Shown one piece after another: positions 1 through 39,434 of a DNA stretch of 43,884 nucleotides. This DNA comes from a virus (taxonomy: Duplodnaviria; Caudoviricetes), in IMG/VR virus record IMGVR_UViG_3300032373_001161, positions 1 through 43,884 of that record; one strand, given 5' to 3'. A model generated the notes under the pieces. That model had not been told where the DNA came from and made no database searches. It worked only from the letters and a program-made list of their open reading frames with translations. Position 1 is the first letter of the stretch, and each line of letters starts with the position of its first letter. Position numbers and translations under genes: made by a program.

Positions 1-3000
1 TTAATTTCCCAAAACCTGTTCTCTTTCCCGATCCTCGATCTGAGTGAGAGTCCTGCTCAACATCGACCGACGTTCGAACCGGAGACGGACAGAGCCGCGT
101 CCAACCATTGTAAATCTGTTGCGTGTGGTCTCGCCCATTGGGTTGGGAAGCTCTAGAACGCACCACTTGTTGGGCGAGAAAACATATGGGACATAGAGGA
201 TGCGATAGCGCCGGCGGCCATCCTTCGATGCGCCACTGGCGATACGGAGTTCATTGGCGGTCAACTCAAATTCGCCGCTGTCTTCCAGAGATGACTTGAC
301 CTCATACAACCAGTCCGCCTGAGGTGTCTTGAGCAGAAAGTCATAGCCTGCCGAATCGTCACCTTCGTCACCGCCGAAAAACTGTGCGCGGTTCTCTGAT
401 ATCCAGCACGTTTCATCGACGAAATCACTGTGGCGTCGGCACAGAAACTGAAAAGCAAGCCACTCGCTTGCCAGGCCCATCGCCTGTCGCTGTGCATCGG
501 TCGGTTGCTGACCACGCCGGCGCTTACCGCCACCCTTGCCGCCAGCACTCGACCCGTAACCGGGCTGCTCTGGGTTCTGGAACTCGACCAGCCGAGTCCG
601 CTGACGGCTTCGTTCAAACCAGGTCTCGTCTTTTGAGAGCCAGGCTGTGGCGATCTCTTGAAGACTCTCGGCGAACATTGGGTCGCCTGTGTCGAGCGAG
701 TTGCCGGCAAACTCAATGCTACGCCGAGCGATCTCCCGTTGTTGCCGCTCACGCTCGCGCCGCTTTTCCTCTTCCTCAACCTCATTCTTGTCGAGCCCCA
801 ATGCTTTCTCATCGAGCGTCTCGGGCATGCCGATCGGCCAGCAAGCGGCTCGTCGGCAGAGGGCCGGGATGCTCTCTGCCTTAACTGCCTCGAAGTCCAG
901 AAGCCCCTTGTTCTCCAGGTGCCGGACAACCGCCTGTACCTCGGCTTGGGTCCACGGCTCGGGCAATGATACGTCGCTCTGCCGGCACCAGACCCGTAGT
1001 ACCGGTAATGCAACCGCTGCAACCCCGCGCACCACCTTGCGGTTCGCCTCAACGAGCCGGTTCAGTGGTGGCAACTTGACCGACACATCATCCCCAAAGG
1101 TGTCGGCGAGAAGTGCCGAGACGTGCGCCTCAACAAGCTCCATCTCCAGTGTCTCCCGCGTCAGAACCCACTCCGCGTTGAAAGCGAGGAAACCTAAGCT
1201 CTTGCGTTCAACGTAGTTTGTGAGGTCATTGCCTTTTTGGAAGTCGGCGGCATGGTGTCGCCTCAGCCGTTCTATGATAGCAGGGCGTAGGCGTGCCAGA
1301 TGCGCGTCGTATAACTGTCGTAGATCCGCTTCGTTGGACAGCGTTGGTTCGCCTAGCTTCAACAAAACACGATTGAACCTCTCGTAGTCCAGTTCCAGAT
1401 CCCTGCGCAACTCGGTGCGGTTTGCAGCCTGCTCGCAGGCCTCAATCAATCTCTCCGGCCCATACTCCATGCCGGTCAAATGAAGCTGGAGCCACTTGCG
1501 TACGTCGAATCTTGCCCCGGCCCGGTCCACGTCGCGCTGAAGTTGCAGCGATAGTTCGATGTCACCGTAGTAGGCCGCCACTGGAAGCAGCAAATGCAGG
1601 ATATGCTCAAGATCAGTCCGCAGCGAAGCCCGATGGTCGTGTACTGTCTGGACATCGCAATCAAGCGCACGTGCTAGCGCCTCGTCGCTTGGTGCATCCA
1701 AGGCATCGGATGCTCGATAAAGGGCAAGTTGTGAGAGCAACAGCCTAGGCGACCTCAGCCTACTGTCTATCAGGCGCGAAAGCCCACCGGACAGCGGACC
1801 CGCCAACGTCATCCAGTCGAGCGATAGGTTGTGGGTCAGAATCAGGGTCGGTAACGTTTCATGCTCAAAGGCATACCACCCCAGATGTTCGGACGGAGAC
1901 ACCTCTTCGTCATCGACAACCAGAGTCATCGCCTCGCACCGCCGAACCCTGATGGTCCGTATCCGGCGATCGATCGTCGAGCTTTGGATGCCACGCTCAA
2001 GCTGTTCCCCACGGATCTCATGCCCGATAACTATGACCTCCGGGAGCCAATCCAGTCCTTGCGAGGTCAAAAGTGCGTCGTTGGAGCGTGGAACGAATGG
2101 CTCACCGTCCACAAGAAGTTGCACGCCTATGCCGTCCAGACGGCGAGGCATGAAGGCGCCAGTCTCTTCGAGCAAGGCGGCTATCCGGTCAGTCGGCGTT
2201 GAGCCGACTTCCAGAACCGGCTGCCCGGCCGCAGACAATATTCGCGCCTCAAACCTTTGAGCATCCTCCGTGACGATAACATCAGCGGGCGCTTCCGGCG
2301 CACCGCAATGGACATCAAGCTGGCCGCGTCGCGTGACGATCAATTCCAGGTCAGGCGGAAGCGAGGTGCCGGTCTCCACAACGTCTTGCCACGCGCGTCG
2401 GTACTCATTTCGCGCCGTCGGGCGTTCGTTTGACGCGAGGCTCGTTGCAACGCTTGCCAAGTGGCGAAGTCGAGCAACGGCTGTTTCCTGACTTTGCCAA
2501 TCGCGCAGTCCCAAGGCTTCACCAAAAGCAAGTTCTACCAACTCGCCGCCTTCGGAGAAGTCCGCCACCGTTTCGGGTACGCGGTCTATGAACCTTGGCG
2601 GCCCCCCGCGACGCACTCGGGATGCCCAACACTCTCTGGGATCTCTAAAGGCTATGCCGTCTTGCGTGCTCGCCGCTATCCAAGCTTTGGCCCGGAGGAA
2701 GGTCGCCAGCGGGGTCGGTAGTATTTGCCGATCCCATTCACGCTCGGAACGCCCAAAGCGACCGACCTCGAATTGAAAGTAACGTATGCCGTGGGATTTC
2801 AAATGCTCGAAGATAAGAGCGCACAGAGCCTCTCTTGCACTTTCCGGCAATGTCTCATGTTCAATCTGGCCCGGTAAGCGCCAAGCCTCTCCCTCCATCC
2901 GGTAGTCCTCGGTATAGGGGTGATTGAATGAAACGCGCTCTACTTCGGCACACCAAGCTTCGTCAAGTCCTTCGGCGGATTTTCCGTGTCTCAGGACGCC

Positions 3001-5358
3001 ATCCCACAAATAGGTCGGCGAGCCCTTGCGCGTCATCCGGGCCGCTACGGGCCGCAGTCCGTCGGCCACGCCAATGAGATCGAGGAAACGTGCCCAGTGC
3101 CGCTTGGCATCCTGAACTGCCACGGGCCAATCCTGTTGTCCGACCAACATGAGATCACGCGCGCGCCGGCAGTCTGCCGATACCTCTGCCGCCTCCACTA
3201 GGTAGTTTTCCAATGTTCTGCCGACCGGTGTCCATGATGACGAAAACACAGCGCGACTTGCCAGTTGCCAGCCCGAGAGCGTTGGCACTTGAAGCTCCGC
3301 CTCATGTAGTTCATCATCCACGCGCGCGCTCGCCGCGCGCCACACCTGAAACGCCCAAAGAAGCGCCTCTTGCCGCCGCTTACTATTCGCCTTCGTCCCA
3401 AGAGCGGACTTGAGGCCGGCCAAGGCTTCAACCGGGTCGTATTCTCGCACCAGACCCGCTTCGATAAGGGCATCCAGTGTCTCGCGTTTGAGTGTGATTC
3501 TCTCATCGAGAAAACGGTATCGGCGGGCCAACGTTGCGGGCGGCAGCGGCACTCCTGCCTTCTTCCGTTTGCCCTTTGGTACGTCACGCCGGACATACAC
3601 GCCGGCCCGTGCTGTTTCGTCATGGCCACCGGCCGGCCTTAGCTTTCCTGATCGGTCGAGGAGAATCTCTTTGCCGTCCAATAGCTCCAGCACCGCGCCA
3701 GAGGCATCAAAGACCCTAGGGAGATCGTTGTAGAAGCTTGACCAGGTTCGTGCTGCCGACTTGCGGCTCAGCAGTGAGCGGGCGAACGCCTCCGACCAGT
3801 CCGCCAGTTGTCCGCTGGATGGTGTGAGTGATCGAAACGTACGACGGGCTACCTCTCTGAGACGCTCTATTCGCCGGGTATCAAGGTCTTTTGAGACCAG
3901 TCGGGCTCCCACATGCCTCGCGACGTCCCTGTCCTTCAGCACCGCGAAACTGCCCTCCGGCCAAATACTGACTTGAGAAATGCTTGCCCATTCCTTGCTG
4001 CCCCGTTCGGCAATGACCGGGATGACCGGCGCATCGCGCAGGGCGCTGTCGATCTCCTTCAGTGCGCCATCGAGCTTGCCGGCATGTTCCCCCGTCCAGG
4101 CGAACAGGTCGAATACCGCTTGCGGCGTTATCGGTAACTCATGCTCGACAATGGATAGAGCGGCTGCGGCACATGCCTCCGCTGCCGCTTCTATCAATGT
4201 TTTGTTTAGAGGCAGGTCGAGGTCAGCAGCACGCCGGTCAATGTCCGTAAAGAAGGGCGCGTCGAGGTATCCGATCAACGGCGCGTCTGCCTCTTCACCC
4301 ATTGGAAGAAAATTGTAGAGGCGGCCATTCGTCACCGCAGCTGTGGACAGGCCAACGGCCACCGAAACCTCCGGCTGCCCTTTCCAGTCAAGCCAGCGCT
4401 TAAGTTGAGGGACAGACGGGATGCTGCTTTCGATAGCCGCGCGCACCCGCTCCTTATCAACCTCGCGGCGCACCACCAGGAACCGGCGGCCTTCGCCTAC
4501 ATCCACTTCGTAGATTGCGCTGCCTTGAAGCTTCGGTATGACGCCTAATGACTTATGGCGCCGATGCAGACGCCGCCGGTAGGGGGGGTGGTTTGGCCGC
4601 TCGACATCGATCCGGACCTCAACAATGCGGTCCAGGAACAATAGAAGCGGCACATCAAGGTCGGCGAGCGTTTTGACCTGCTCGCACGCCAACGCCACCG
4701 CCTCAGCTGTCCGTAGCGGCGCGACAATAACCGTCGCATAGCCACGGCGGGCAAACGAGATTATCTCTTCGGGCTGCTCGTTCAGCGGTCTTGGGACAAG
4801 GTATCGCGGAATGGTTCTCGCCACTTCGCTACGCGTCGAAGCGTCAACGCCGTAAGACTGCAGGACGGATTCAATCTCAGGTGTGGAGGCAAAGCGAAAA
4901 CAATAACCGTTGAACCTGTTCGGTTTCTCCTTCCCTTGCTGTGAGAATATCCGTGCGTCATTGGTCAGCGCCTCAATGCTCCTGAAACCGAGCCCCTTAT
5001 TTCCAATGCCTTCGCCAATTTCCTTGGCGCTGATCGCCAGGTTCCTGATGGCCTCCACATCTTCCTTTCGGAATCCGTTGCCATCATTTGCGATGTAGAG
5101 CTCGCCATCGTTGTCTGATCGGATGACCAGTCTGATTGCGATTCGGCCCTCGTCACCCGACTCATGAGCGTCATGGGCGTTCTGAATCAACTCAAACAGA
5201 ACCCGATCGCCGTACTCGGTGCCGATAACCTCGTTCAGATTTTGGAGGCTCTCGTAGACCTTTAGGCTGCGTCGCTGCGCGTCAACGGCATGCTCCAGTA
5301 CCGCCCGGACTTGCCTCTCCAGATCCTCGGCAGGCCGCCCAGAAATCACGTCATTCAT
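1..5358 (-). CDS. Large sacsin/NOV-like GHKL ATPase with C-terminal DUF3883 (PD-(D/E)XK-like) domain; candidate anti-phage protein
   Basis: N-terminal GHKL motifs FELIQNAHDA, NDGNGF and IGNKGLGFRS. C-terminal AGYDFLL...YEVKSS...FELTANE typical of DUF3883. Complete ORF; ATGA overlap with the upstream gene. Confidence 0.8.
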   Translation of the reverse strand: MNDVISGRPAEDLERQVRAVLEHAVDAQRRSLKVYESLQNLNEVIGTEYGDRVLFELIQNAHDAHESGDEGRIAIRLVIRSDNDGELYIANDGNGFRKEDVEAIRNLAISAKEIGEGIGNKGLGFRSIEALTNDARIFSQQGKEKPNRFNGYCFRFASTPEIESVLQSYGVDASTRSEVARTIPRYLVPRPLNEQPEEIISFARRGYATVIVAPLRTAEAVALACEQVKTLADLDVPLLLFLDRIVEVRIDVERPNHPPYRRRLHRRHKSLGVIPKLQGSAIYEVDVGEGRRFLVVRREVDKERVRAAIESSIPSVPQLKRWLDWKGQPEVSVAVGLSTAAVTNGRLYNFLPMGEEADAPLIGYLDAPFFTDIDRRAADLDLPLNKTLIEAAAEACAAAALSIVEHELPITPQAVFDLFAWTGEHAGKLDGALKEIDSALRDAPVIPVIAERGSKEWASISQVSIWPEGSFAVLKDRDVARHVGARLVSKDLDTRRIERLREVARRTFRSLTPSSGQLADWSEAFARSLLSRKSAARTWSSFYNDLPRVFDASGAVLELLDGKEILLDRSGKLRPAGGHDETARAGVYVRRDVPKGKRKKAGVPLPPATLARRYRFLDERITLKRETLDALIEAGLVREYDPVEALAGLKSALGTKANSKRRQEALLWAFQVWRAASARVDDELHEAELQVPTLSGWQLASRAVFSSSWTPVGRTLENYLVEAAEVSADCRRARDLMLVGQQDWPVAVQDAKRHWARFLDLIGVADGLRPVAARMTRKGSPTYLWDGVLRHGKSAEGLDEAWCAEVERVSFNHPYTEDYRMEGEAWRLPGQIEHETLPESAREALCALIFEHLKSHGIRYFQFEVGRFGRSEREWDRQILPTPLATFLRAKAWIAASTQDGIAFRDPRECWASRVRRGGPPRFIDRVPETVADFSEGGELVELAFGEALGLRDWQSQETAVARLRHLASVATSLASNERPTARNEYRRAWQDVVETGTSLPPDLELIVTRRGQLDVHCGAPEAPADVIVTEDAQRFEARILSAAGQPVLEVGSTPTDRIAALLEETGAFMPRRLDGIGVQLLVDGEPFVPRSNDALLTSQGLDWLPEVIVIGHEIRGEQLERGIQSSTIDRRIRTIRVRRCEAMTLVVDDEEVSPSEHLGWYAFEHETLPTLILTHNLSLDWMTLAGPLSGGLSRLIDSRLRSPRLLLSQLALYRASDALDAPSDEALARALDCDVQTVHDHRASLRTDLEHILHLLLPVAAYYGDIELSLQLQRDVDRAGARFDVRKWLQLHLTGMEYGPERLIEACEQAANRTELRRDLELDYERFNRVLLKLGEPTLSNEADLRQLYDAHLARLRPAIIERLRRHHAADFQKGNDLTNYVERKSLGFLAFNAEWVLTRETLEMELVEAHVSALLADTFGDDVSVKLPPLNRLVEANRKVVRGVAAVALPVLRVWCRQSDVSLPEPWTQAEVQAVVRHLENKGLLDFEAVKAESIPALCRRAACWPIGMPETLDEKALGLDKNEVEEEEKRRERERQQREIARRSIEFAGNSLDTGDPMFAESLQEIATAWLSKDETWFERSRQRTRLVEFQNPEQPGYGSSAGGKGGGKRRRGQQPTDAQRQAMGLASEWLAFQFLCRRHSDFVDETCWISENRAQFFGGDEGDDSAGYDFLLKTPQADWLYEVKSSLEDSGEFELTANELRIASGASKDGRRRYRILYVPYVFSPNKWCVLELPNPMGETTRNRFTMVGRGSVRLRFERRSMLSRTLTQIEDREREQVLGN

Positions 5359-5867
5359 GGCCGCAAATTCCCTTCACCGGCCCCGTCTTTGCGTACAATT
5401 TCATTTGCCTGTTCAGGCCAAATCTGTTTCCCAATCTGCTTAAACTTGGAGACGGCCAAGGCGCCGCGCTCATTTCGTGCTTTGCTGCCGGGGGCGGTCA
5501 GCGCCTCGACGACCGCGCCACGCTCCGCTTCCCAGATCTCCAACGTTTCGAGCACCTCGTCCATCAAGACCAAAAGAACAGCGTCCCATTCATGGTCTAG
5601 TTTGATGGAACCGAGCCGTTGGCTTTTTCGGCGTCCGGCTGCGGAAATGGCGCGGGCCTTGATCTGGTAACGCACGCCGTACTCGTCAGTCGCGTCGTAT
5701 CCGGGAGCCCTCGCATCGGCGAGAGTGAGACCGAGAAGCCGTGCTGCTTCATATTCCCCGACCTCACCTGTAATGCCGAGCGGTTTCCCTGTCAGCCGAT
5801 AGTAGTCGATCGCCGCTTGCTTGGCTCTCGCGAGGATCTCGCTGATCGACGTCGTGATGTCGGTCAT
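5355..5867 (-). CDS. Small putative PD-(D/E)XK nuclease-like protein (DUF6998-like)
   Basis: GEVGEYEAA...PGYDATD...YQIKAR pattern. Start placed at ATG 5867, which overlaps the stop of the upstream peptidase (ATGA). Confidence 0.6.
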   Translation of the reverse strand: MTDITTSISEILARAKQAAIDYYRLTGKPLGITGEVGEYEAARLLGLTLADARAPGYDATDEYGVRYQIKARAISAAGRRKSQRLGSIKLDHEWDAVLLVLMDEVLETLEIWEAERGAVVEALTAPGSKARNERGALAVSKFKQIGKQIWPEQANEIVRKDGAGEGNLRP

Positions 5868-6781
5868 GACCGCGCGCCAGCGGTGAACTGATCGTAGGTG
5901 TCCCACTCCTTCGGCTCGTCAAGATTATCGCCCCACATCCGGTCCGGTGCATCGTTAGGATAGAGGAGCAGGGAGATCGACATTTCATTCCGTGGCGAGA
6001 AGACGGTCATCTCGTGGACCTCCTCGCCTCCCAGCCAAACGCCTTTTGCGTGAATAACGCCCGTGGTGTTATCAATCGACATATCCTGGCGTGCGGCGAG
6101 CGAATTTTCGGGCAAGGGCACGATCTGCTGGCGGGCGCGGTAGAAGACGCCCGATTTGATCAACGGCTGGCTCGACCAGGCCCAGTCGATGAAGCCATTC
6201 TCGCCAATCACGATCATCGCCCGCTTATCGGTTATGCCGAGCCACTTGAGAATGGCGGCGGTGATGGAGACCTCATATTGGTCTGACAGGTGGCTCATGA
6301 GATCCATGGTGATGTCTTGGCCACGGATCTGGGCACGAAAGTCATCCAACGGCATCAGCAGATACGATGCGAAGGTGTTCGCTTGCGCTTCGACCTGCCC
6401 ACGCTCCGACCTCCAATCCAGCATGGCGCGGTTGCTGCACTGCAGCCCCCCTGGAGACAAGGTCCGGTGAAGCAGGTAGTGCCCCAATTCGTGGGCCAGG
6501 GTGAAGTTGATCCTGCCCTTCGATGTGATGGCGCTGTTATAGACGATGCCCCATTCGCCATTGCCGTCGGGATGCGGGATCAGCATGCCTTCGAAGTTTT
6601 TGGACATTTCCAGGCCCTCGACCATGGTGATCGGCGCCTCGGGGAAAACCTGCCTGGAGTAATCGGTCGCAATGGCGGCCACGTTGATGGGGAAGCGATC
6701 CAAGCCATGCACCTCATGGAACAGTTTGACGAGCTTGGTTAGGTGGATCGCCCATCCCTCTGGTGTGGTCGGAAGGTTCAC
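5864..6781 (-). CDS. ImmA/IrrE-family Zn metallopeptidase (CapP-like)
   Basis: RINFTLAHELGHYLLH (HExxH) and EAQANTFASYLLMP; long C-terminal extension as in IrrE/CapP. GTG start overlaps the HTH stop. Confidence 0.88.
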   Translation of the reverse strand: MNLPTTPEGWAIHLTKLVKLFHEVHGLDRFPINVAAIATDYSRQVFPEAPITMVEGLEMSKNFEGMLIPHPDGNGEWGIVYNSAITSKGRINFTLAHELGHYLLHRTLSPGGLQCSNRAMLDWRSERGQVEAQANTFASYLLMPLDDFRAQIRGQDITMDLMSHLSDQYEVSITAAILKWLGITDKRAMIVIGENGFIDWAWSSQPLIKSGVFYRARQQIVPLPENSLAARQDMSIDNTTGVIHAKGVWLGGEEVHEMTVFSPRNEMSISLLLYPNDAPDRMWGDNLDEPKEWDTYDQFTAGARS

Positions 6782-31897: not shown

Positions 31898-34453
31898 ATG
31901 CCCAAAACCCAGAACACATATGCGATCCGCCTCACCGTAGACGGCGGCGGCAAGGTCAAGGCCGAATTGATGGACGTGGGCCGGACCGGCGACAAGTCCC
32001 TCAAGAAAATCGAAACGGCCAGCGGCAAGGCGTCGCGTGGGCTTTCCACTCTGGCCGGGCGGGCCAAGACGCTCAAGAGCGGCATCGGGATATTAAGCGG
32101 CGTGCTTGCCGGTGTCGCCTTGGCCGGGTTCACCCGGTCCCTCGTCATGCAGGCCGATGCCTACAAGGTCCTACAGACCCGGATCAAGACGGCGACCAAG
32201 GCCACCGGCGATTACGAGGCGGTCTCGCGGGCGCTGATGGCGTTGTCCAACGCCAACGGGGCTGCGCTCGAAAGCACCGTTGGGCTGTTTCAGAGCTTGG
32301 CGCGCTCGGCGCCGGAGCTTGGGGCCACCAACAAGCAGATCCTCGACCTCGTCGATGTGGTGCAAAAATTGGGCGTCATCGGCGGCGCCAGCACGTCCGC
32401 CATGAAGGCGGGGCTGTTGCAGTTCTCACAAGGGCTATCCGCCGGCGTGTTCCGGGCCGAGGAATTCAACAGCCTTCTGGAGAACATCCCCGAGGTGGCG
32501 GTCCGCATCGCCAAGGGGATGGGCGTGACGGTCGGTCAGCTTCGCCAGATGGTGCTGCAGGGTCGTGTGTTGTCGAATGATGTGTTCGAGGCCCTGGTCA
32601 AGCAGGCGCCGGAGATCGCCCGGGAGTTTGCCGACATCCCGCTTTCCATCGATCGGGCCACGGTCCAGTTGGACAATGCGTTTTCGGAACTGCTGGGAAC
32701 CCTGGACAGGGTCACCGGTACGAGTTCCATCGTTGCCGAGACCTTGAGCGGCGTCGCCTGGTCCATCCGGGCGGCATCGGACGGCATGAACATTCTCTAC
32801 GACGTCCTGACCGACAAGCGTCCCATTGACCAGAACATCAACACTCTCAAATGGGGCATCGAGGGCCTGAGCGAGGCCATCGCCGACCTAAACAGGCAGA
32901 TCGCCGAGAACGACGTCGGTTTTCTGGATGGTTTGTTCGGATCGGATATTGACGACCTGAAAGCCCGTCGCGCCGAGTTCGAGAAGATATTGAAGGAGCT
33001 GCAAGCCGCCCTGGACCAGAAATCCCGGATGGGCAAGGCGGAGAACACTGCGCCCAATGCCGGGATCGACATCAAGGCCGCCGAGGCTCGCGCCAAGAAT
33101 ATCGCCCGGATCGAGGCCAAGCTGCAGCAGCAGTTGTTCGCCCTGACTTACGAAGGCGCCGCCAAGATCCGCGCCGAATACGAACGGCTGGGCAAAGACA
33201 TAACGGCGTTATTGGCCCCGGACGGGAGCAACCGGTCCCAGGTGGATGCCTTGATGACCAAGGCGGCGGCCATCCGCGACGCCAAGCTGGCGCAATTGGC
33301 GGCCAAGGAACAGGAAGCGGCTAATCGGATCACGGAAGCCAACCGGAAGATCATCGAAGGGCTGCGGGCCGAGCATGACGCGCTGGCCATGACCGATCGC
33401 GCCAGGTTCGTCTCCCAGGCCCTGCGGCAGTTATCCGCCGAGGCGACCGATGCCGAGCGGGGCCAGGTGCGCGAACTGGCCGGCGCCCTGTTCGACGAGC
33501 AACAGGTCATCCTGGCCCGCAACAAGGCGGAACAGGAAGCCGCCAAGCTCAAGGAGAAGGGCCGCGCCCTCACGGAAAGTCTGCGGACGGCGGAGGAAGC
33601 CTACAAGGCAGAGATCGCGGACCTGAACCGGCTCCTGAACGAGGGGGCGATTGCCCAGGAGACCTTCGCTCGGGCCTCGGAAGAGGCCTATGACCGCATG
33701 CTGCGGGCCAGCCGGGACTGGTCGGCGGGCGTCATTCGGGCCTTGCGCGATTACGCCGACGAGGCGTCCAACGCCGCCAAGCAGTTTGAACAGGTCACGA
33801 CCCGGTCGTTGAAAGCCGGCGAGGATGCTTTCGTCCAGTGGGCGACGACCGGCAAGGTCAGCGCCACCGATCTGTTCAACACCATCGCCGAGGAGGCGCT
33901 TCGGGCCGCATACCGCATGGCGGTGATCAAACCGTTCAGCGGTTTCCTGGAGAACGTGTTCGGGGCCATTGGAAGCAGTCTGTTCAGCGGCGGCGGGGCT
34001 ATTCAAGACGCTGGCGGCGGGCCGGTCCAGATTGCCCATAGCGGTGGCGTTATCGGGATAGACCCTCTTGCCGCCCGTTTCGTCGATCCGGTGGTGTTCG
34101 ATTCCGCGCCACGGTTTCACTCCGGCGGTGTCGTCGGAAACGAAGTTCCCATCATCGCCAAGCGCGGCGAGACAGTGTTCACGCCGGGCCAAATGCGAGT
34201 GCTGGGCGCGGGCCTCGTTGGCGCAAGAATGGGGCAAAAACCGGAGGTCAAGGTTGTCGTCAACGTGGACAACCGGGCACCGGGAACGGAAGCCAAGGTT
34301 CAAACACGCCGGGACGGTAACGGCAACCTCGGTCTGGACATCGTGGTCGAGAAGGTCGAGGGACGGCTTTCGCGCAACATCGGGCGTGGTGAAGGCCTGG
34401 CCCCGACCCTGGAGCGCCGATATGGGCTCAACCCGGCGGCGGGGAGTTATTGA
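31898..34453 (+). CDS. Tail tape measure protein
   Basis: Tape-measure domain QFSQGLSAGVFRAEEFNSLLEN, long Ala-rich helical region, lambda-type C-terminus (DW..G...AL.DY; FHSGG..EVPIIAKRGE). Confidence 0.93.
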   Translation: MPKTQNTYAIRLTVDGGGKVKAELMDVGRTGDKSLKKIETASGKASRGLSTLAGRAKTLKSGIGILSGVLAGVALAGFTRSLVMQADAYKVLQTRIKTATKATGDYEAVSRALMALSNANGAALESTVGLFQSLARSAPELGATNKQILDLVDVVQKLGVIGGASTSAMKAGLLQFSQGLSAGVFRAEEFNSLLENIPEVAVRIAKGMGVTVGQLRQMVLQGRVLSNDVFEALVKQAPEIAREFADIPLSIDRATVQLDNAFSELLGTLDRVTGTSSIVAETLSGVAWSIRAASDGMNILYDVLTDKRPIDQNINTLKWGIEGLSEAIADLNRQIAENDVGFLDGLFGSDIDDLKARRAEFEKILKELQAALDQKSRMGKAENTAPNAGIDIKAAEARAKNIARIEAKLQQQLFALTYEGAAKIRAEYERLGKDITALLAPDGSNRSQVDALMTKAAAIRDAKLAQLAAKEQEAANRITEANRKIIEGLRAEHDALAMTDRARFVSQALRQLSAEATDAERGQVRELAGALFDEQQVILARNKAEQEAAKLKEKGRALTESLRTAEEAYKAEIADLNRLLNEGAIAQETFARASEEAYDRMLRASRDWSAGVIRALRDYADEASNAAKQFEQVTTRSLKAGEDAFVQWATTGKVSATDLFNTIAEEALRAAYRMAVIKPFSGFLENVFGAIGSSLFSGGGAIQDAGGGPVQIAHSGGVIGIDPLAARFVDPVVFDSAPRFHSGGVVGNEVPIIAKRGETVFTPGQMRVLGAGLVGARMGQKPEVKVVVNVDNRAPGTEAKVQTRRDGNGNLGLDIVVEKVEGRLSRNIGRGEGLAPTLERRYGLNPAAGSY

Positions 34454-34932
34454 TGGTTGTTTCCTGGCCGGTGACTTTGCCGCTGCCCACTATCGACGGC
34501 TACGGCGTCCATCCCGGCGAGGCGATTCTTCGCACAGAGATGGAGGCCGGTCCCGCCCGCCAGCGCCGCCGTTATACCCAGGTGCCGAGCCGGATATCGG
34601 TTCGCTGGATCCTGCGAAGGGATCAGTTTGCTCTGTTCGAGTCCTGGTATCGCTGGCACGCCAAGGAAGGCGGCGAATGGTTTGAGATCGAGCTTTTGGG
34701 CGGTATCGGGATGTCAATCCACGAGGCCCGGTTCACCCGTCCCTTCGATGCCCAGCCCCGGTCAGGGATCCTGTGGGAGGTCACCAGTGAACTGGAAATC
34801 CGTGAGCGGCCCGTTTTGACCGAGGATGCTTTGGCGATCGCGCTCGACAGCGATCTGGCCGACTTGTTTGCCACCGTTGATCGGCTGCATGGGCTGGTGA
34901 ACGTGACGTTGTTCGGCCCCTATTCCTGGTAG
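34453..34932 (+). CDS. Distal tail protein (gpM/Dit-like)
   Basis: WP.TLP.P, RTEMEAGPARQRRRYT, FESWY...GGEWF; follows the tape measure. Confidence 0.75.
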   Translation: MVVSWPVTLPLPTIDGYGVHPGEAILRTEMEAGPARQRRRYTQVPSRISVRWILRRDQFALFESWYRWHAKEGGEWFEIELLGGIGMSIHEARFTRPFDAQPRSGILWEVTSELEIRERPVLTEDALAIALDSDLADLFATVDRLHGLVNVTLFGPYSW

Positions 34933-34944
34933 GAGGAACTTTAT

Positions 34945-36150
34945 ATGACAATGCAGACCGACCTGCAGGCGGCCGTCGACAAGGCCACGGCTGCGAGCGC
35001 CAAGCTGCATGACGTCGTTCATGGCGATGCCGTTTCCACCGTTGCAACCGAGTCCGGACCGGTCAAGACGGTGGCCAAGGCGGTCGCCGACATCGAGGCC
35101 GATATCGATGCCAGCCGCACTGAACTCGACCAAAAGGTTACAGACGCTGCGGCCAGCGCCACCGCTGCGGAAACCGCGCGCACCGCATCGGAGATCGCCG
35201 AGGCAGCATCGAATACAGCCCGACTGGGTGCTGAAGCAGCGGAAACCGGAGCCGTTACCTCGGAGTCGAATGCCGATACCGCAAGGATCGCCGCCGAAAT
35301 AGCCCGCGATGCGGCGAACGTAAGTGCTGGTCAGGCCGCGACAAGCCAATCTGCGAGCGCCGTCTCGGAATCGGGTGCTGCCGCCAGTGCGGCCGCTGCC
35401 GCGACTTCCGAGACCAATGCCGGTGCGAGTGCCGGCGTCGCGACGACGAAAGCCACGGAAGCTTCGGCCAGCGCCGATGCCGCCGCCATTTCCGCGTCGG
35501 CGTCCGCCACCAGCGCCTCAGAGGCGAGCGGTGCCGCGGCATCCTTGAACCTTCCTACCGCTACGGGACAGGCTGGTCTGTATCTCCGCCAAAAGCAGGA
35601 CGAGACGGGTCTCGAATATGCCGAGGTCGACCTCGCTAGCCGTGTTTTGAAGAGCGGAGACACCATGTCCGGTGACCTGGCTCTGCCGAACCTGGTAGCG
35701 ACCGGCAGTGTTCGCTCGGGTGCCGTTGGCGATGATGGACGAGGCACCGGGTTTCAGATTGCCGACGGCACGGATATCGGCGAGCTCAACCGGGTCAGCC
35801 AATACTACGACGACCTTGTCGATAACTGCGCCGGCTATCTTCCGGGCGGGAACTGCAACAGCGACCCGCAGTGGACGCCGCCCAACGGGGATTGGTGGAC
35901 CTGGGGGTTGGGGTTTTCGCCCGGTAACCCCAGCGGTTTCGACTTCGCGGGCGGCCAGACGATCGGATACCAGCCGGTCTCGGTCGGCTTCGTGTTCGGC
36001 TCCTACAATCTTGCCGCCGACGAGATCGGAGGCGGGGAATATCGGCGAGATTACAACAACTGCAATTGCGGCAGCTTCAACTGCTACTCCAACTGCAATT
36101 GCAACTGCAACTGCGCGTGCGATTGCAACTGCGATTGCGGCGATGCCTGA
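34945..36150 (+). CDS. Tail-fibre-like protein with Ala/Ser/Thr stalk and Cys-rich C-terminus
   Basis: AGGAGG RBS; long AAASA..SETNA stalk like lambda Stf; fibre motif VLKSGDTMSGDL; ends NNCNCGSFNCYSNCNCNCNCACDCNCDCGDA. Confidence 0.8.
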   Translation: MTMQTDLQAAVDKATAASAKLHDVVHGDAVSTVATESGPVKTVAKAVADIEADIDASRTELDQKVTDAAASATAAETARTASEIAEAASNTARLGAEAAETGAVTSESNADTARIAAEIARDAANVSAGQAATSQSASAVSESGAAASAAAAATSETNAGASAGVATTKATEASASADAAAISASASATSASEASGAAASLNLPTATGQAGLYLRQKQDETGLEYAEVDLASRVLKSGDTMSGDLALPNLVATGSVRSGAVGDDGRGTGFQIADGTDIGELNRVSQYYDDLVDNCAGYLPGGNCNSDPQWTPPNGDWWTWGLGFSPGNPSGFDFAGGQTIGYQPVSVGFVFGSYNLAADEIGGGEYRRDYNNCNCGSFNCYSNCNCNCNCACDCNCDCGDA

Positions 36151-36159
36151 GGTGCGATC

Positions 36160-37047
36160 ATGATCCAGCCATTTACGCGACACTTCTTCGCGCTGTCGGT
36201 GCCGGTCCTCGTTCAGGTCATGAAGGCCCCGCGCAAGGTGACGCTCAGGACGTTTCGGGAAGCGGAGGGCGTCACGGCCAAGGAAAGCGGCAGTCGGGTC
36301 CTCAAGGGAGCCGGCGTGGCCGCTCGGCTGGTCGCTCAGTCAAGAGGCCGGGAGCAGGATTGGCGTGGACGGTTGATCGCCGGGCATCTGCTGCACGAAC
36401 GCTTCGACGGTCGTGCCTTCGAGTTTCTCGGTTCTTCGGTGCTCGACCTGGACGGCGCGCTCGGGCGTTCGGAATGGACCGATTACGGCAACTGGGTTTT
36501 TCCGTTGGATCGGGAGGGAACCCCAGGAACGCCGTTCAACCGATACATCGACAGCAAGGCATCACGTGTCCGCACACCCCGTCTGCTCGCCCTCAAGAAG
36601 ATCAACTGCGCGCTGCAGGTCTACGTACCCTTCGCCGCCGGCGATTTCGATGGCTGCAGCTTTAGCCTGACGCTCAATCCCGACTATGGCCTGATCGGCA
36701 ATCTCGATCCGGGCACGGAGACGACCTACGAGGAAGTGCTGAAGGGAGCGGGACAAGCGTTTCCGAAGCTCGGGCTTACAGGGCCGGACAACATACCAGC
36801 CGACGGCACCGTCTCTCTCACACTCGCCGTAACCGACTGGGCCGGGAACCCTGTCGCCGACGCAGCGCCGGAAGTGTTCCTGGAGAGCATTGGCGGGTAT
36901 CTGCCGCTGCAGCGAGCCGTTCCCACTGGTGGCGCAGCAGAGATCCGTGTCATGGCGCTCGGTCTTGTCGCCGGCGAAAGCATCCGCGTCAAGGCCGGTT
37001 TCCGCCATGTCTCTGGTCTCGCCGAGCACACCCTTGCTGTAATCTGA
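36160..37047 (+). CDS. Hypothetical protein with probable C-terminal Ig-like beta-sandwich
   Basis: GAGGTG RBS; C-terminal IPADGTVSLTLAVTDWAGNPV resembles bacterial Ig (Big_1-type) repeats; TGATG coupling to the first radical SAM gene. Confidence 0.65.
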   Translation: MIQPFTRHFFALSVPVLVQVMKAPRKVTLRTFREAEGVTAKESGSRVLKGAGVAARLVAQSRGREQDWRGRLIAGHLLHERFDGRAFEFLGSSVLDLDGALGRSEWTDYGNWVFPLDREGTPGTPFNRYIDSKASRVRTPRLLALKKINCALQVYVPFAAGDFDGCSFSLTLNPDYGLIGNLDPGTETTYEEVLKGAGQAFPKLGLTGPDNIPADGTVSLTLAVTDWAGNPVADAAPEVFLESIGGYLPLQRAVPTGGAAEIRVMALGLVAGESIRVKAGFRHVSGLAEHTLAVI

Positions 37048-38063
37048 TGCTGAATATTCATTTGGGCCATGCCTGCAACTTTCGTTGCGGCTATTGCCTG
37101 CAGACCACCCATGCCGACGGGGCGAGCGGCCGCCAGGCAGTCGATCCGTTCATCGAGCGTGTCGTTCCCTATGTCCAGGCGCAGGGCATCAGGGAGGTCG
37201 CCTATTGGGGCGGGGAGCCGCTGCTCTATTGGCGCCGTATCGAAGCCATCCATGAAGCCTTTCTCGATGCCGGGATCACGTTCGACTTCGTCAAGTTCGT
37301 CACTAACGGATCCTTGTTGACGGAGACGCATGTGGAACGCCTCAACGCGTGGGGCGCATTCGTCGTCGTTAGCCGCCATAACGGAGCGGGAGAGCCGCGC
37401 TGGGACCAGGTCGCGCACCTCAAACGCTCCAGTGTCTCGTTTCTGTTCCACCACGGCTCGCTCGTCGCCTGGCCCTGGTTCGAAGAACTGAAGGCGCTCG
37501 AGGATCGCTTCGGACGCCCATTCTGGCCCTATGCGCATTGGGTGCGGGCGACCGATGGGTGTGACCCGAGTTACTACCTGACCCATGACGACATCGATCG
37601 CCATGTTCCGCATCTCTGGGATCTCGCCAGGACGAGTTTGAATGGGCACCGACATGCCACGAGGGTATTCGCCGGTCACCTCAGGGACTGGCGAGCCACC
37701 CTGAACCAGGATGCGAGCGCACCGCCGCTTTGCCACAACGATCGACATCTGTCGGTCGATCTCGCGGGCGACCGGTACACCTGCCACCACAATGTCCGGC
37801 CCTTCGCATGCACGGGCGAGCTGTTCTCCGGCAGCGGGCCCAGAAACGAAGACGAGGAGAAGGCGCTGGCGCTGTCCCGGCGATGGATTGACAGCGCCAA
37901 CTGCCGCTCCTGCCCGATCCGGACCTGGTGCAGGGGCAATTGCCATCTCTCGAATACCCATGACGTCGACTGCCGGCTATCGAAAGAAAAGCACCGGGTG
38001 CTCGCCTGGCTCGATGCCCAGGAGCATGGCGCCAATGCACGCAATCTGATCGAGGTTTCCTGA
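37047..38063 (+). CDS. Radical SAM enzyme with SPASM domain (no N-terminal extension)
   Basis: CNFRCGYC, WGGEPLL, VTNGSLL; SPASM Cys pattern LC..DLAGDRYTC..CRSCPIRTWCRGNC..C. Confidence 0.93.
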   Translation: MLNIHLGHACNFRCGYCLQTTHADGASGRQAVDPFIERVVPYVQAQGIREVAYWGGEPLLYWRRIEAIHEAFLDAGITFDFVKFVTNGSLLTETHVERLNAWGAFVVVSRHNGAGEPRWDQVAHLKRSSVSFLFHHGSLVAWPWFEELKALEDRFGRPFWPYAHWVRATDGCDPSYYLTHDDIDRHVPHLWDLARTSLNGHRHATRVFAGHLRDWRATLNQDASAPPLCHNDRHLSVDLAGDRYTCHHNVRPFACTGELFSGSGPRNEDEEKALALSRRWIDSANCRSCPIRTWCRGNCHLSNTHDVDCRLSKEKHRVLAWLDAQEHGANARNLIEVS

Positions 38064-38066
38064 CAC

Positions 38067-39434
38067 ATGACCGACGAACTCGAATACCGGCTCGCGATGG
38101 CGGGCCGGAATGGATATCTGCGTCATCTGCTATATCGCCCGCATGTCTCCGCACTGGTCTGGGAAGACAGCGGCGAGCCGGTGAGCCTCGCAGCGGTCGG
38201 AATGGACTACGCCCGAGCGGATCGGGAATGGTCGAGAGCGTTCGCCGTCAGCCCGGACAACCCCGCGCCCAAGTCGCGCGAGGTGCGCGTGCTCAAGATC
38301 CAGATGGGTCTCAAGTGCAACTACGCCTGCGCCTATTGCAATCAGGCGAGCCATCCCCACGAGATCCAGGGCAACCTTGATGATGTCGAGGCGTTTCTCG
38401 GCAACCTGCCGACCTGGTTCGACGGCGCTGACGGGAAGGGTTTGCGGATCGAGTTCTGGGGTGGTGAGCCTTTCGTCTATTGGAAGGCGCTGAGAGCGCT
38501 CGGCGACAGTCTGCGGTCGGCCTATCCGCTGGCCGACTTCAACATCATCACCAACGGTTCGCTCATCGACGATGAGAAGATCGAGTGGCTGGACCGCCTA
38601 GGGTTCCACGTCGGAATCAGTCATGACGGACCCGGCCAGGCGACCTCTCGCGGCCCGGACCCGCTCGATGATCCGGTCAGATGCGCGGCTATCCGTAAGC
38701 TCTACGATCGGCTGTTTCCAAAGGGGCATATCGGTTTCAACTGCGTCGTGACGCGGGACTTTCGCTCGCTCGTGGCGGTGCGAGAGCATATCGGAGGGCG
38801 TCTCGGTATCGACCCGGGAGACGTTCCACTTTGCACGGAAGAGCTTCTCCTGCCCTACGATCTGGGCGGTCTCGGGCTGTCCCCTGGGAATGCCGATGAG
38901 CATGACGCGATCCTGCAGGAAGTCTGGTGGGAGGCGGTGACGGGCCGGTCCATGTCGGTCACCACGATCCGGCGCAAATGCGAGGACTTCTTCCGCTCGC
39001 TTAGCCAGGGCCGCCCCGCATCGACCCTTGGCCAGAAGTGCGGCATGGATCGCCCCGAGAACATCGCCGTCGATCTGAAAGGCAACGTGATAACCTGTCA
39101 GAATACCAGTGCCGGCACGCGGCACCGGATCGGTCACGTCGACGACTTCGAGAACATTCGCCTCGATACGGCGCATCACTGGTCGACGCGGGCCGAGTGT
39201 ACGAACTGCCCGGTCGTGCAGATATGCAAGGGAGCCTGCTTCTACCTTGAGGACGATCTCTGGCGGCAGGCCTGCGACAACAGCTTCACCTGGAATCTCG
39301 CCATGCTCGCCGTGTCGCTCTACTGGTTGACCCGCCTGGTGTTGGTCGAGATCGAGGGACCTGTGCTGCGACGGCCCGAACTTCCTCAGAAGATCCGAGT
39401 CATTCGCCAACCGGCCGAACAGACGGTGGTCTGA
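38067..39434 (+). CDS. Radical SAM enzyme with SPASM domain and about 75-aa N-terminal extension
   Basis: CNYACAYC, FWGGEPF, ITNGSL, ISHDGP; SPASM pattern KC..DLKGNVITC..CTNCPVVQICKGAC..C. Confidence 0.93.
   Translation: MTDELEYRLAMAGRNGYLRHLLYRPHVSALVWEDSGEPVSLAAVGMDYARADREWSRAFAVSPDNPAPKSREVRVLKIQMGLKCNYACAYCNQASHPHEIQGNLDDVEAFLGNLPTWFDGADGKGLRIEFWGGEPFVYWKALRALGDSLRSAYPLADFNIITNGSLIDDEKIEWLDRLGFHVGISHDGPGQATSRGPDPLDDPVRCAAIRKLYDRLFPKGHIGFNCVVTRDFRSLVAVREHIGGRLGIDPGDVPLCTEELLLPYDLGGLGLSPGNADEHDAILQEVWWEAVTGRSMSVTTIRRKCEDFFRSLSQGRPASTLGQKCGMDRPENIAVDLKGNVITCQNTSAGTRHRIGHVDDFENIRLDTAHHWSTRAECTNCPVVQICKGACFYLEDDLWRQACDNSFTWNLAMLAVSLYWLTRLVLVEIEGPVLRRPELPQKIRVIRQPAEQTVV

Follow-up and report, generated by a model that had tools for sequence, protein, structure and literature searches.

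SPASM-type radical SAM enzymes bind extended single peptides. One such SPASM enzyme, QhpD, forms several Cys-carbon thioethers in a protein subunit (QhpC), and the spacing used by PapB is CX3D. In enteropeptin, the Cys sulfur is joined to the alpha-carbon of the preceding residue within MKG-O-C-PPS (PMC12395415, PMC13361665). In the NxxcB/NxxcA system, the Cys sulfur is bonded to an upstream Asn at its beta-carbon in the motif N-x-x-C (PMC13361665). In SPASM domains with seven Cys, the fourth position of Aux I is open to another ligand or Cys or to the substrate, and in TigE it is taken by Tyr (PMC10878394). Papers have listed phage radical SAM genes as auxiliary metabolic genes, as genes of antibiotic synthesis or as possible genes of DNA modification (the last in PMC11437467). 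The 'rSAM module' of the Thermus phages Cumys and phiMa has a DUF483 partner, and its authors propose DNA modification (PMC11437467). Pelagimyophages carry radical SAM cassettes in the host-recognition cluster, and the accessible text of that paper assigns no role to them (PMC7029224). A literature search, with most subscription papers, supplements and the primary papers on phages JWF and RSP15 outside its scope, found no description of radical-SAM modification of a phage fibre.

A four-gene cassette in a provirus

The window, which is the whole stretch of DNA that was analysed (43,884 bases), is one provirus record with an estimated completeness of 75%. Its head and tail genes are lambda-like, and the named close relatives of its fibre are labelled Rhodospirillales or Alphaproteobacteria. 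Four genes encoding the fibre, protein X, rSAM1 and rSAM2 form a cassette between two tail genes:

34450..34932, plus strand: conserved tail gene of PHROG 384, bordering the cassette on the left; "Dit-like" is a name by position
34945..36150, plus strand: tail fibre gene, 401 aa (ORF translation), with weak PHROG tail/fibre matches over residues 28-211; N-terminal anchor and Ala-rich shaft at about residues 1-225, tip domain at 226-401
35824..35856, plus strand: two isolated Asn-Cys dipeptides, N294-C295 and N303-C304, invariant in the alignment
36019..36036, plus strand: DEIGGG motif, kept in the window's tip subfamily only and read as structural
36058..36147, plus strand: C-terminal Asn-Cys tract, residues 372-401
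36091-36138, plus strand: uninterrupted (X-Cys)8 run inside the tract
36160..37047, plus strand: accessory protein X, 295 aa, with an N-terminal domain and an Ig-like domain (residues 202-295)
37047..38063, plus strand: rSAM1, second radical SAM/SPASM protein, 338 aa, lacking the N-terminal extension; optional
38067..39434, plus strand: rSAM2, core radical SAM/SPASM enzyme, 455 aa, with an N-terminal extension of about 70 aa
39441..39983, plus strand: DUF1833 minor tail gene, bordering the cassette on the right, with NlpC/P60 and TipJ-like genes after it

Elsewhere in the window, a 1785-aa protein with weak sacsin/HATPase and NOV_C matches (1-5358, minus strand) is preceded by a DUF6998 gene (5355-5906, minus strand); both adjoin the repressor region and look like defence-type cargo.

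The fibre has both a position in the tail module and a fibre-type anchor. Searches of the fibre and X found no family in Pfam and nothing above cut-off in NCBIfam, and tblastn of the tip against cultured phages gave no match. An AlphaFold2 model of the tip monomer (16 sequences) had a mean pLDDT of 35.5. The crowding of Cys at the C-terminus, from which the original prediction started, was confirmed. The first Cys is residue 295, leaving 294 residues without Cys (about 293 had been claimed), and 11 Cys lie in the last 29 residues. The 13 Cys are preceded by Asn in ten cases, Asp in two and Ala in one, so that N/D stands before 12 of 13, and DEIGGG is indeed present upstream of the tract. Among homologous fibre C-termini, the (X-Cys)n run was kept in 116 of 120 listed tip-domain proteins (the tip-region search gave 121 proteins; the figures refer to the 120 listed, query included), and the four without a run look truncated or chimeric. 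N294, C295, N303 and C304 are all invariant among 73 aligned sequences.

It had also been argued from the codons that selection acts on the protein rather than through DNA slippage. In the window, the X codons do vary (AAC, AAT, GAT, GCG), but all 13 Cys codons are TGC, so the window by itself is nearly uninformative on slippage. The codon mix across relatives bears the argument out. In 83 distinct rSAM-linked runs, TGC and TGT occur 275 and 240 times, AAC and AAT 201 and 134 times, and Ala uses all four codons; in 80 look-alike cellular runs without a nearby rSAM, the count is TGC 493 to TGT 84. The mean number of distinct hexamers per unit is 0.66 in the former and 0.24 in the latter. Slippage was rejected as the cause of tract conservation because third positions are mixed in the enzyme-linked runs; it probably varies the run length, which is 3 to 10 units in viral loci, without explaining conservation. 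Judged from codons and alignments, the tract is selected and conserved at the protein level.

Protein X gave an AF2 model with a mean pLDDT of 88.4. Its Ig-like domain is of the intimin/invasin Big_1 type (Z 12.3, rmsd 2.3 A over 91 residues), and its N-terminal domain had no PDB match among the matches listed. X has a homologue in phage RSP15 (HH probability 99.5) and 804 representative relatives at E<=0.001, some of which match the Ig part only. At some loci X is absent between tip and enzyme.

Both rSAMs have the CxxxCxxC cluster motif and a seven-Cys SPASM domain with the motif CX2CX5CX3C, and both score above the TIGR04085 cut-off of 27 (36.2 and 35). The ligands in rSAM2 are C84/88/91, and its seven SPASM Cys are 325, 344, 378, 381, 387, 391 and 403. 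The rSAM2 family is compact. Each of these ten Cys is present in at least 86 of 87 sequences, and the 87 show no conserved eighth SPASM Cys. The best named-family NCBIfam score of rSAM2 is 70 bits against a cut-off of 519, and the named thioether maturases (PapB, CteB/SCIFF, QhpD, CcpM) give 40-56 bits against cut-offs of 340-500 (PapB 56 against 340). As rSAM2 falls far short of the cut-off of every named family, its chemistry cannot be taken over from any of them. Its best PDB sequence matches are 8VPO (TigE, E 1e-11) and then 5WGG (CteB), and an anaerobic sulfatase maturase is among the weak ones. The seven SPASM Cys are compatible with thioether chemistry but are not diagnostic, because TigE also has seven yet makes cyclopropanes. 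Residues 1-75 of rSAM2 had no Pfam match; their best Atlas scores were 0.86 (unnamed) and 0.84 (PqqD in 11% of members), a weak lead to an RRE.

In a quick tree, rSAM1 forms a clade separate from rSAM2. It is missing from many loci, where its slot is filled by Fe/2OG-oxygenase-like or unnamed genes; weak 2OG-Fe(II) oxygenase matches were seen in 3 of 13 scanned replacements, and each of these scored below the cut-off or close to it. Because many cassettes lack rSAM1, we rejected an obligatory role for it and read it as optional tailoring.

Linkage of the tract to rSAM2 and its carrier proteins

We analysed the association of tract and enzyme from both sides. Starting from the enzyme, the run is present at 40 of 44 viral loci with rSAM2, and at the remaining four the sequence upstream of the match is short, about 240-750 bases. 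Starting from the repeat, 59 loci had an N-C frame and no less than 3.5 kb downstream; 51 of these have a same-strand rSAM gene, which reaches >=250 bits at 48. These 59 loci come from a viral pattern scan of 120 loci, of which 40 were left out (630 bases only); among the 80 with flanks, seven had no N-C frame of at least 30 aa and 14 had less than 3.5 kb downstream. The rSAM profile was built from loci of the present analysis, and CxxxCxxC is present in 122 of its 124 distinct matches. The N-C frames of the eight scored loci without rSAM are 32-51 aa long in seven cases and 112 aa in one, and we read them as chance repeats.

As a same-slot control, we took 141 loci with both flanking genes, which gave 71 non-identical related phage loci spanning the slot. 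Repeat and enzyme were both present at ten, neither at 61, and one alone at none. Locus L254 was scored by the script as enzyme-only (9/61/1), but its fibre does end NCNCNC and it was counted as both (10/61/0). The nominal Fisher p for this table is 2e-12; because the loci are related, independence is overstated in this value and in the other linkage counts. At least four different tip types occur in the ten slots with repeat and enzyme. The N-terminal anchor of the fibre is common to many enzyme-free relatives bearing other tips, and thus tip, X and enzyme act as a single cassette that can be exchanged. Lack of conservation of the repeat in homologues had been named among the outcomes that would speak against the original prediction; the repeat is conserved, and it is genetically tied to rSAM2 in both directions and in the same-slot control. 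As far as gene content can tell, the cassette is real and widespread and the pairing of enzyme and substrate is strongly indicated. It is very probable that the tract is a substrate of rSAM2 at all, whatever the reaction.

The cultured phages in which rSAM2 has a long match agree with this linkage. In Achromobacter phage JWF, gp28 contains NCNCDCNCNCS followed by a Hint domain. ORF048 of phage RSP15 has NTNCQCGN at its end, and in phage RP12 a frame that lacks annotation ends in NCNCNCAC. In this Ralstonia phage (NC_041911), the frame is about 64 aa long (L047:3834-4055, ending NCNCNCACTRGSL) and lies directly 5' of a gene for 295 aa and of three radical SAM genes.

Some occurrences of the pattern are of other kinds. 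On a 10.9-kb fragment (6% complete) without rSAM, which counts against the linkage, the N-C run is internal: the fragment encodes a 2086-aa DUF4815 protein (L080:1552-7812) whose NCNCACNCACDC run lies about 600 residues from the C-terminal end. Frames of about 130-200 aa at L053, L068, L086 and L099 show CxxCxx periodicity, end NCNCDCNC and have next to them two radical SAM genes that belong to other clades. In cellular genomes, a fibre-like ORF and rSAM2 were found at only 4 of 80 examined pattern loci (41 further loci were left out), and most of the others resemble (AACTGC)n microsatellites. The pattern is thus mostly noise in cellular genomes and is not diagnostic by itself. Such microsatellites are common among genome matches L308-L387, notably in Burkholderiales, Gemmatimonadaceae and Acidobacteriaceae.

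The run-bearing proteins range from about 100 to more than 700 aa. Among 19 carriers scanned, seven have collagen repeats, three a T7 fibre anchor, four a Hint domain (three below cut-off) and one an S74 chaperone domain, which begins just after the run; NCBIfam searches of nine other carriers and of RSP15's X gave no family. A long extension after the run is usually a self-cleaving domain (14 of 120 listed tip-family proteins, partly by inspection). From the collagen and T7 anchors together with the self-cleaving domains after the run, we infer a mature protein that ends at the run and is trimeric. The run likely forms the end of the mature trimeric fibre, and its location in the virion is predicted. 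Several carriers deserve mention. Hint-like domains are fused right after the run in P0076, P0081, P0086, P0090, P0097, P0098, P0137 and P0146-P0152 (14 of 120) and at L046:6712-8163. By inspection, these domains, including that of JWF gp28, keep Cys1 and extend beyond the place of the intein terminal Asn, which suggests N-terminal cleavage only. L038:3321-5562 encodes three tandem tip paralogues, one of which extends into an unnamed domain of about 160 aa starting GKIICT that had no Pfam match. At L264:5694-6179, on the same contig as L191 and in the same tail slot as the window cassette, a collagen Gly-Pro-Gln repeat almost abuts NCNCNC.

Possible chemistry of the Asn-Cys pairs

Cys residues outside the runs reveal a rule. 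Among 154 isolated Cys in 50 representatives, Asn stands at -1 in 125 (Asn background 10.8%), against 22 at -3, 28 at +1 and 23 at +3. In 22 control fibres from enzyme-free slots, Asn precedes only 4 of 144 Cys. The rule holds in five tip families unlinked by BLAST (88/94, 80/88, 41/41, 3/3 and 4/6); a sixth such family with isolated Cys, L114, is an exception (0/7). In the terminal run of 116 proteins, Asn occupies unit 1 in 114, unit 2 in 115 and unit 3 in 108, and from unit 4 onward X is a mixture of N, A, D and V (over all 780 run positions, N 511, A 130, D 111, V 12). A fibre at L044, beside the same enzyme family, ends in ACACACACNC. By these counts the conserved unit is the dipeptide Asn-Cys and not an NxxC or CxxxD spacing. 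The ladder of thioethers to Asn/Asp beta-carbons that had been foreseen throughout the tract is not supported, as distal units often have Ala or Val and only units 1-3 are nearly always Asn. Nor are the spacings of the enzymes invoked for it. NxxcB-type spacing is contradicted by the isolated Cys, with 22 of 154 at -3 against 125 at -1, and NxxC arises automatically inside any NCNC run; for PapB-type spacing, the i,i+4 partner within an alternating run is Cys.

We slightly favour the reading that rSAM2 staples X-Cys units by thioethers. The fibre chain would be made in the reducing cytoplasm, without disulfides, and rSAM2 would bind it before or during folding. The enzyme would take H from residue X of an X-Cys pair, and the X radical would couple to the Cys thiol, which the open iron of auxiliary cluster I would hold in place. 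A C-alpha linkage would give an enteropeptin-type six-membered ring and would account for the tolerance of Ala, Asp and Val; a C-beta linkage would give a seven-membered ring and would account for the Asn preference. rSAM1 in the window, or oxygenases at other loci, might add optional tailoring. Three chains would then assemble, Hint or S74 tails, where present, would cleave off, and the Ig-bearing X, by inference, would serve as an assembly helper or a tip cap. Stapling would thereby stiffen the tip of the predicted trimeric fibre. Given thioethers, links between adjacent residues of the same chain have about an even chance, and they are favoured because such enzymes bind extended single peptides. 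Links between staggered chains are a weaker prospect: a collagen-like stagger of one residue would also set Cys i beside residue i-1 of the neighbouring chain. Sequence cannot separate these two arrangements. Other spacings are unlikely.

The tract might instead be a substrate for a reaction other than thioether formation, such as epimerisation of every second residue (giving an alternating D/L backbone), Cys oxidation of a formylglycine- or thioamide-like kind, or a new fused Asn-Cys ring. The same linkage data fit this explanation, as does the absence of rSAM2 from any named family; strict alternation suits an alternating modification, and an anaerobic sulfatase maturase is among the weak PDB matches. 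However, Cys is the invariant member of each pair, several of the nearest neighbours in NCBIfam and PDB form thioethers, and with its number of SPASM Cys the enzyme has a site free for a thiol of the substrate. We regard it as improbable.

A metal core is rather less probable still. In the iron needle of T4 gp37, His-x-His motifs from three chains bind axial metal ions. Similarly, metals or Fe-S clusters could be held along the axis of the fibre by the Cys of three chains, with the enzyme helping to load them or acting on Asn or another residue. The CxC spacing would put all Cys on one strand face, the carriers look trimeric, and run lengths from 3 to 10 units could be those of a modular core. 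This would leave unexplained why the tract is absent from 61 of 61 enzyme-free loci and why Asn also precedes isolated Cys that lie far from the run, and no SPASM enzyme is known to us to load a client with metal.

Virion proteins rich in Cys can become oxidised once outside the cell, so disulfides could form after lysis with the enzyme as a cassette hitch-hiker. Against this stand the linkage, which runs both ways and extends over unrelated carriers and types of phage (JWF, RSP15 and RP12 among them), and the fully conserved cluster ligands of rSAM2, which make it very improbable. Least credible is the release of the C-terminal ~37 residues as a RiPP by double-glycine processing at the Gly run, as had been suggested: in the window's subfamily GG is kept (G362 invariant and G363 at least 90% in the aligned tip subfamily; in 76 of 116 proteins GG lies no more than 30 residues from the run), but it is not found in other tip families, some subfamily members have EVGF, EVGY or ELLG, self-cleaving domains come after the run and not before it, the site is near the C-terminus (residues 362-363 of 401) of a 401-aa fibre rather than in a short leader-bearing, protease-released precursor, and a PF03412 (C39) peptidase search of the provirus record (75% complete) found none, with a control search positive in 7 of 14 genomes.

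If the thioether reading is true, radical-SAM maturation would act on a virion structural protein, for which our literature search found no precedent, and chemistry of the antibiotic-peptide type would be applied to a protein of the virus particle. It would give phage radical SAM genes a job, would mean that the structure of a receptor-binding tip is not derivable from sequence alone, and would provide an enzyme stapling Asn-Cys pairs on many different protein scaffolds. More broadly, and as a tentative proposal only, many unrelated tailed phages may make the fibre end a non-standard polymer: a radical SAM enzyme would turn Asn-Cys pairs into backbone heterocycles or inter-chain cross-links, and the host-contacting tip would be built by virus-encoded RiPP-type chemistry and not by folding alone. 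Since JWF is a cultured carrier of the cassette, a direct test is feasible.

Comparison with described radical SAM systems

The Cumys/phiMa module resembles the window cassette in being phage-borne and in combining a radical SAM gene with partner genes, and there is a weak match over 25% of the length of rSAM2; a link to a fibre or to Cys repeats is not mentioned in the accessible text of that paper (PMC11437467). The cyclopropyl synthases TigE and TvgB share with rSAM2 a seven-Cys SPASM enzyme and a repeated motif, and 8VPO is its best PDB match. As far as the available descriptions go, they target Ile/Val and have a GYW motif, whereas rSAM2 lacks GYW and its repeats are Cys-based.

Like QhpD and the ranthipeptide maturases CteB and PapB, which form several Cys-carbon thioethers, rSAM2 is a SPASM enzyme, and the CteB structure 5WGG is its second PDB match. 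It differs from them in scoring 41-56 bits against cut-offs of 340-453 and in lacking a quinohemoprotein or SCIFF context, and the CX3D spacing of PapB is unavailable in an alternating run. With NxxcB/NxxcA, as described in the accessible text, the cassette shares a radical SAM enzyme and Cys with an upstream Asn, the thioether being predicted here; Asn is enriched at -1 and not at -3, and the substrate is not a leader-core peptide. The KGR-family sactipeptide enteropeptin shares the residue-Cys order, O-C there and X-Cys here. Enteropeptin, in the accessible accounts, is a short peptide that is exported and has a single ring, on N-methylornithine, whereas the window would present as many as 13 units, with a preference for Asn and a predicted linkage, in a virion-type protein of 401 aa.
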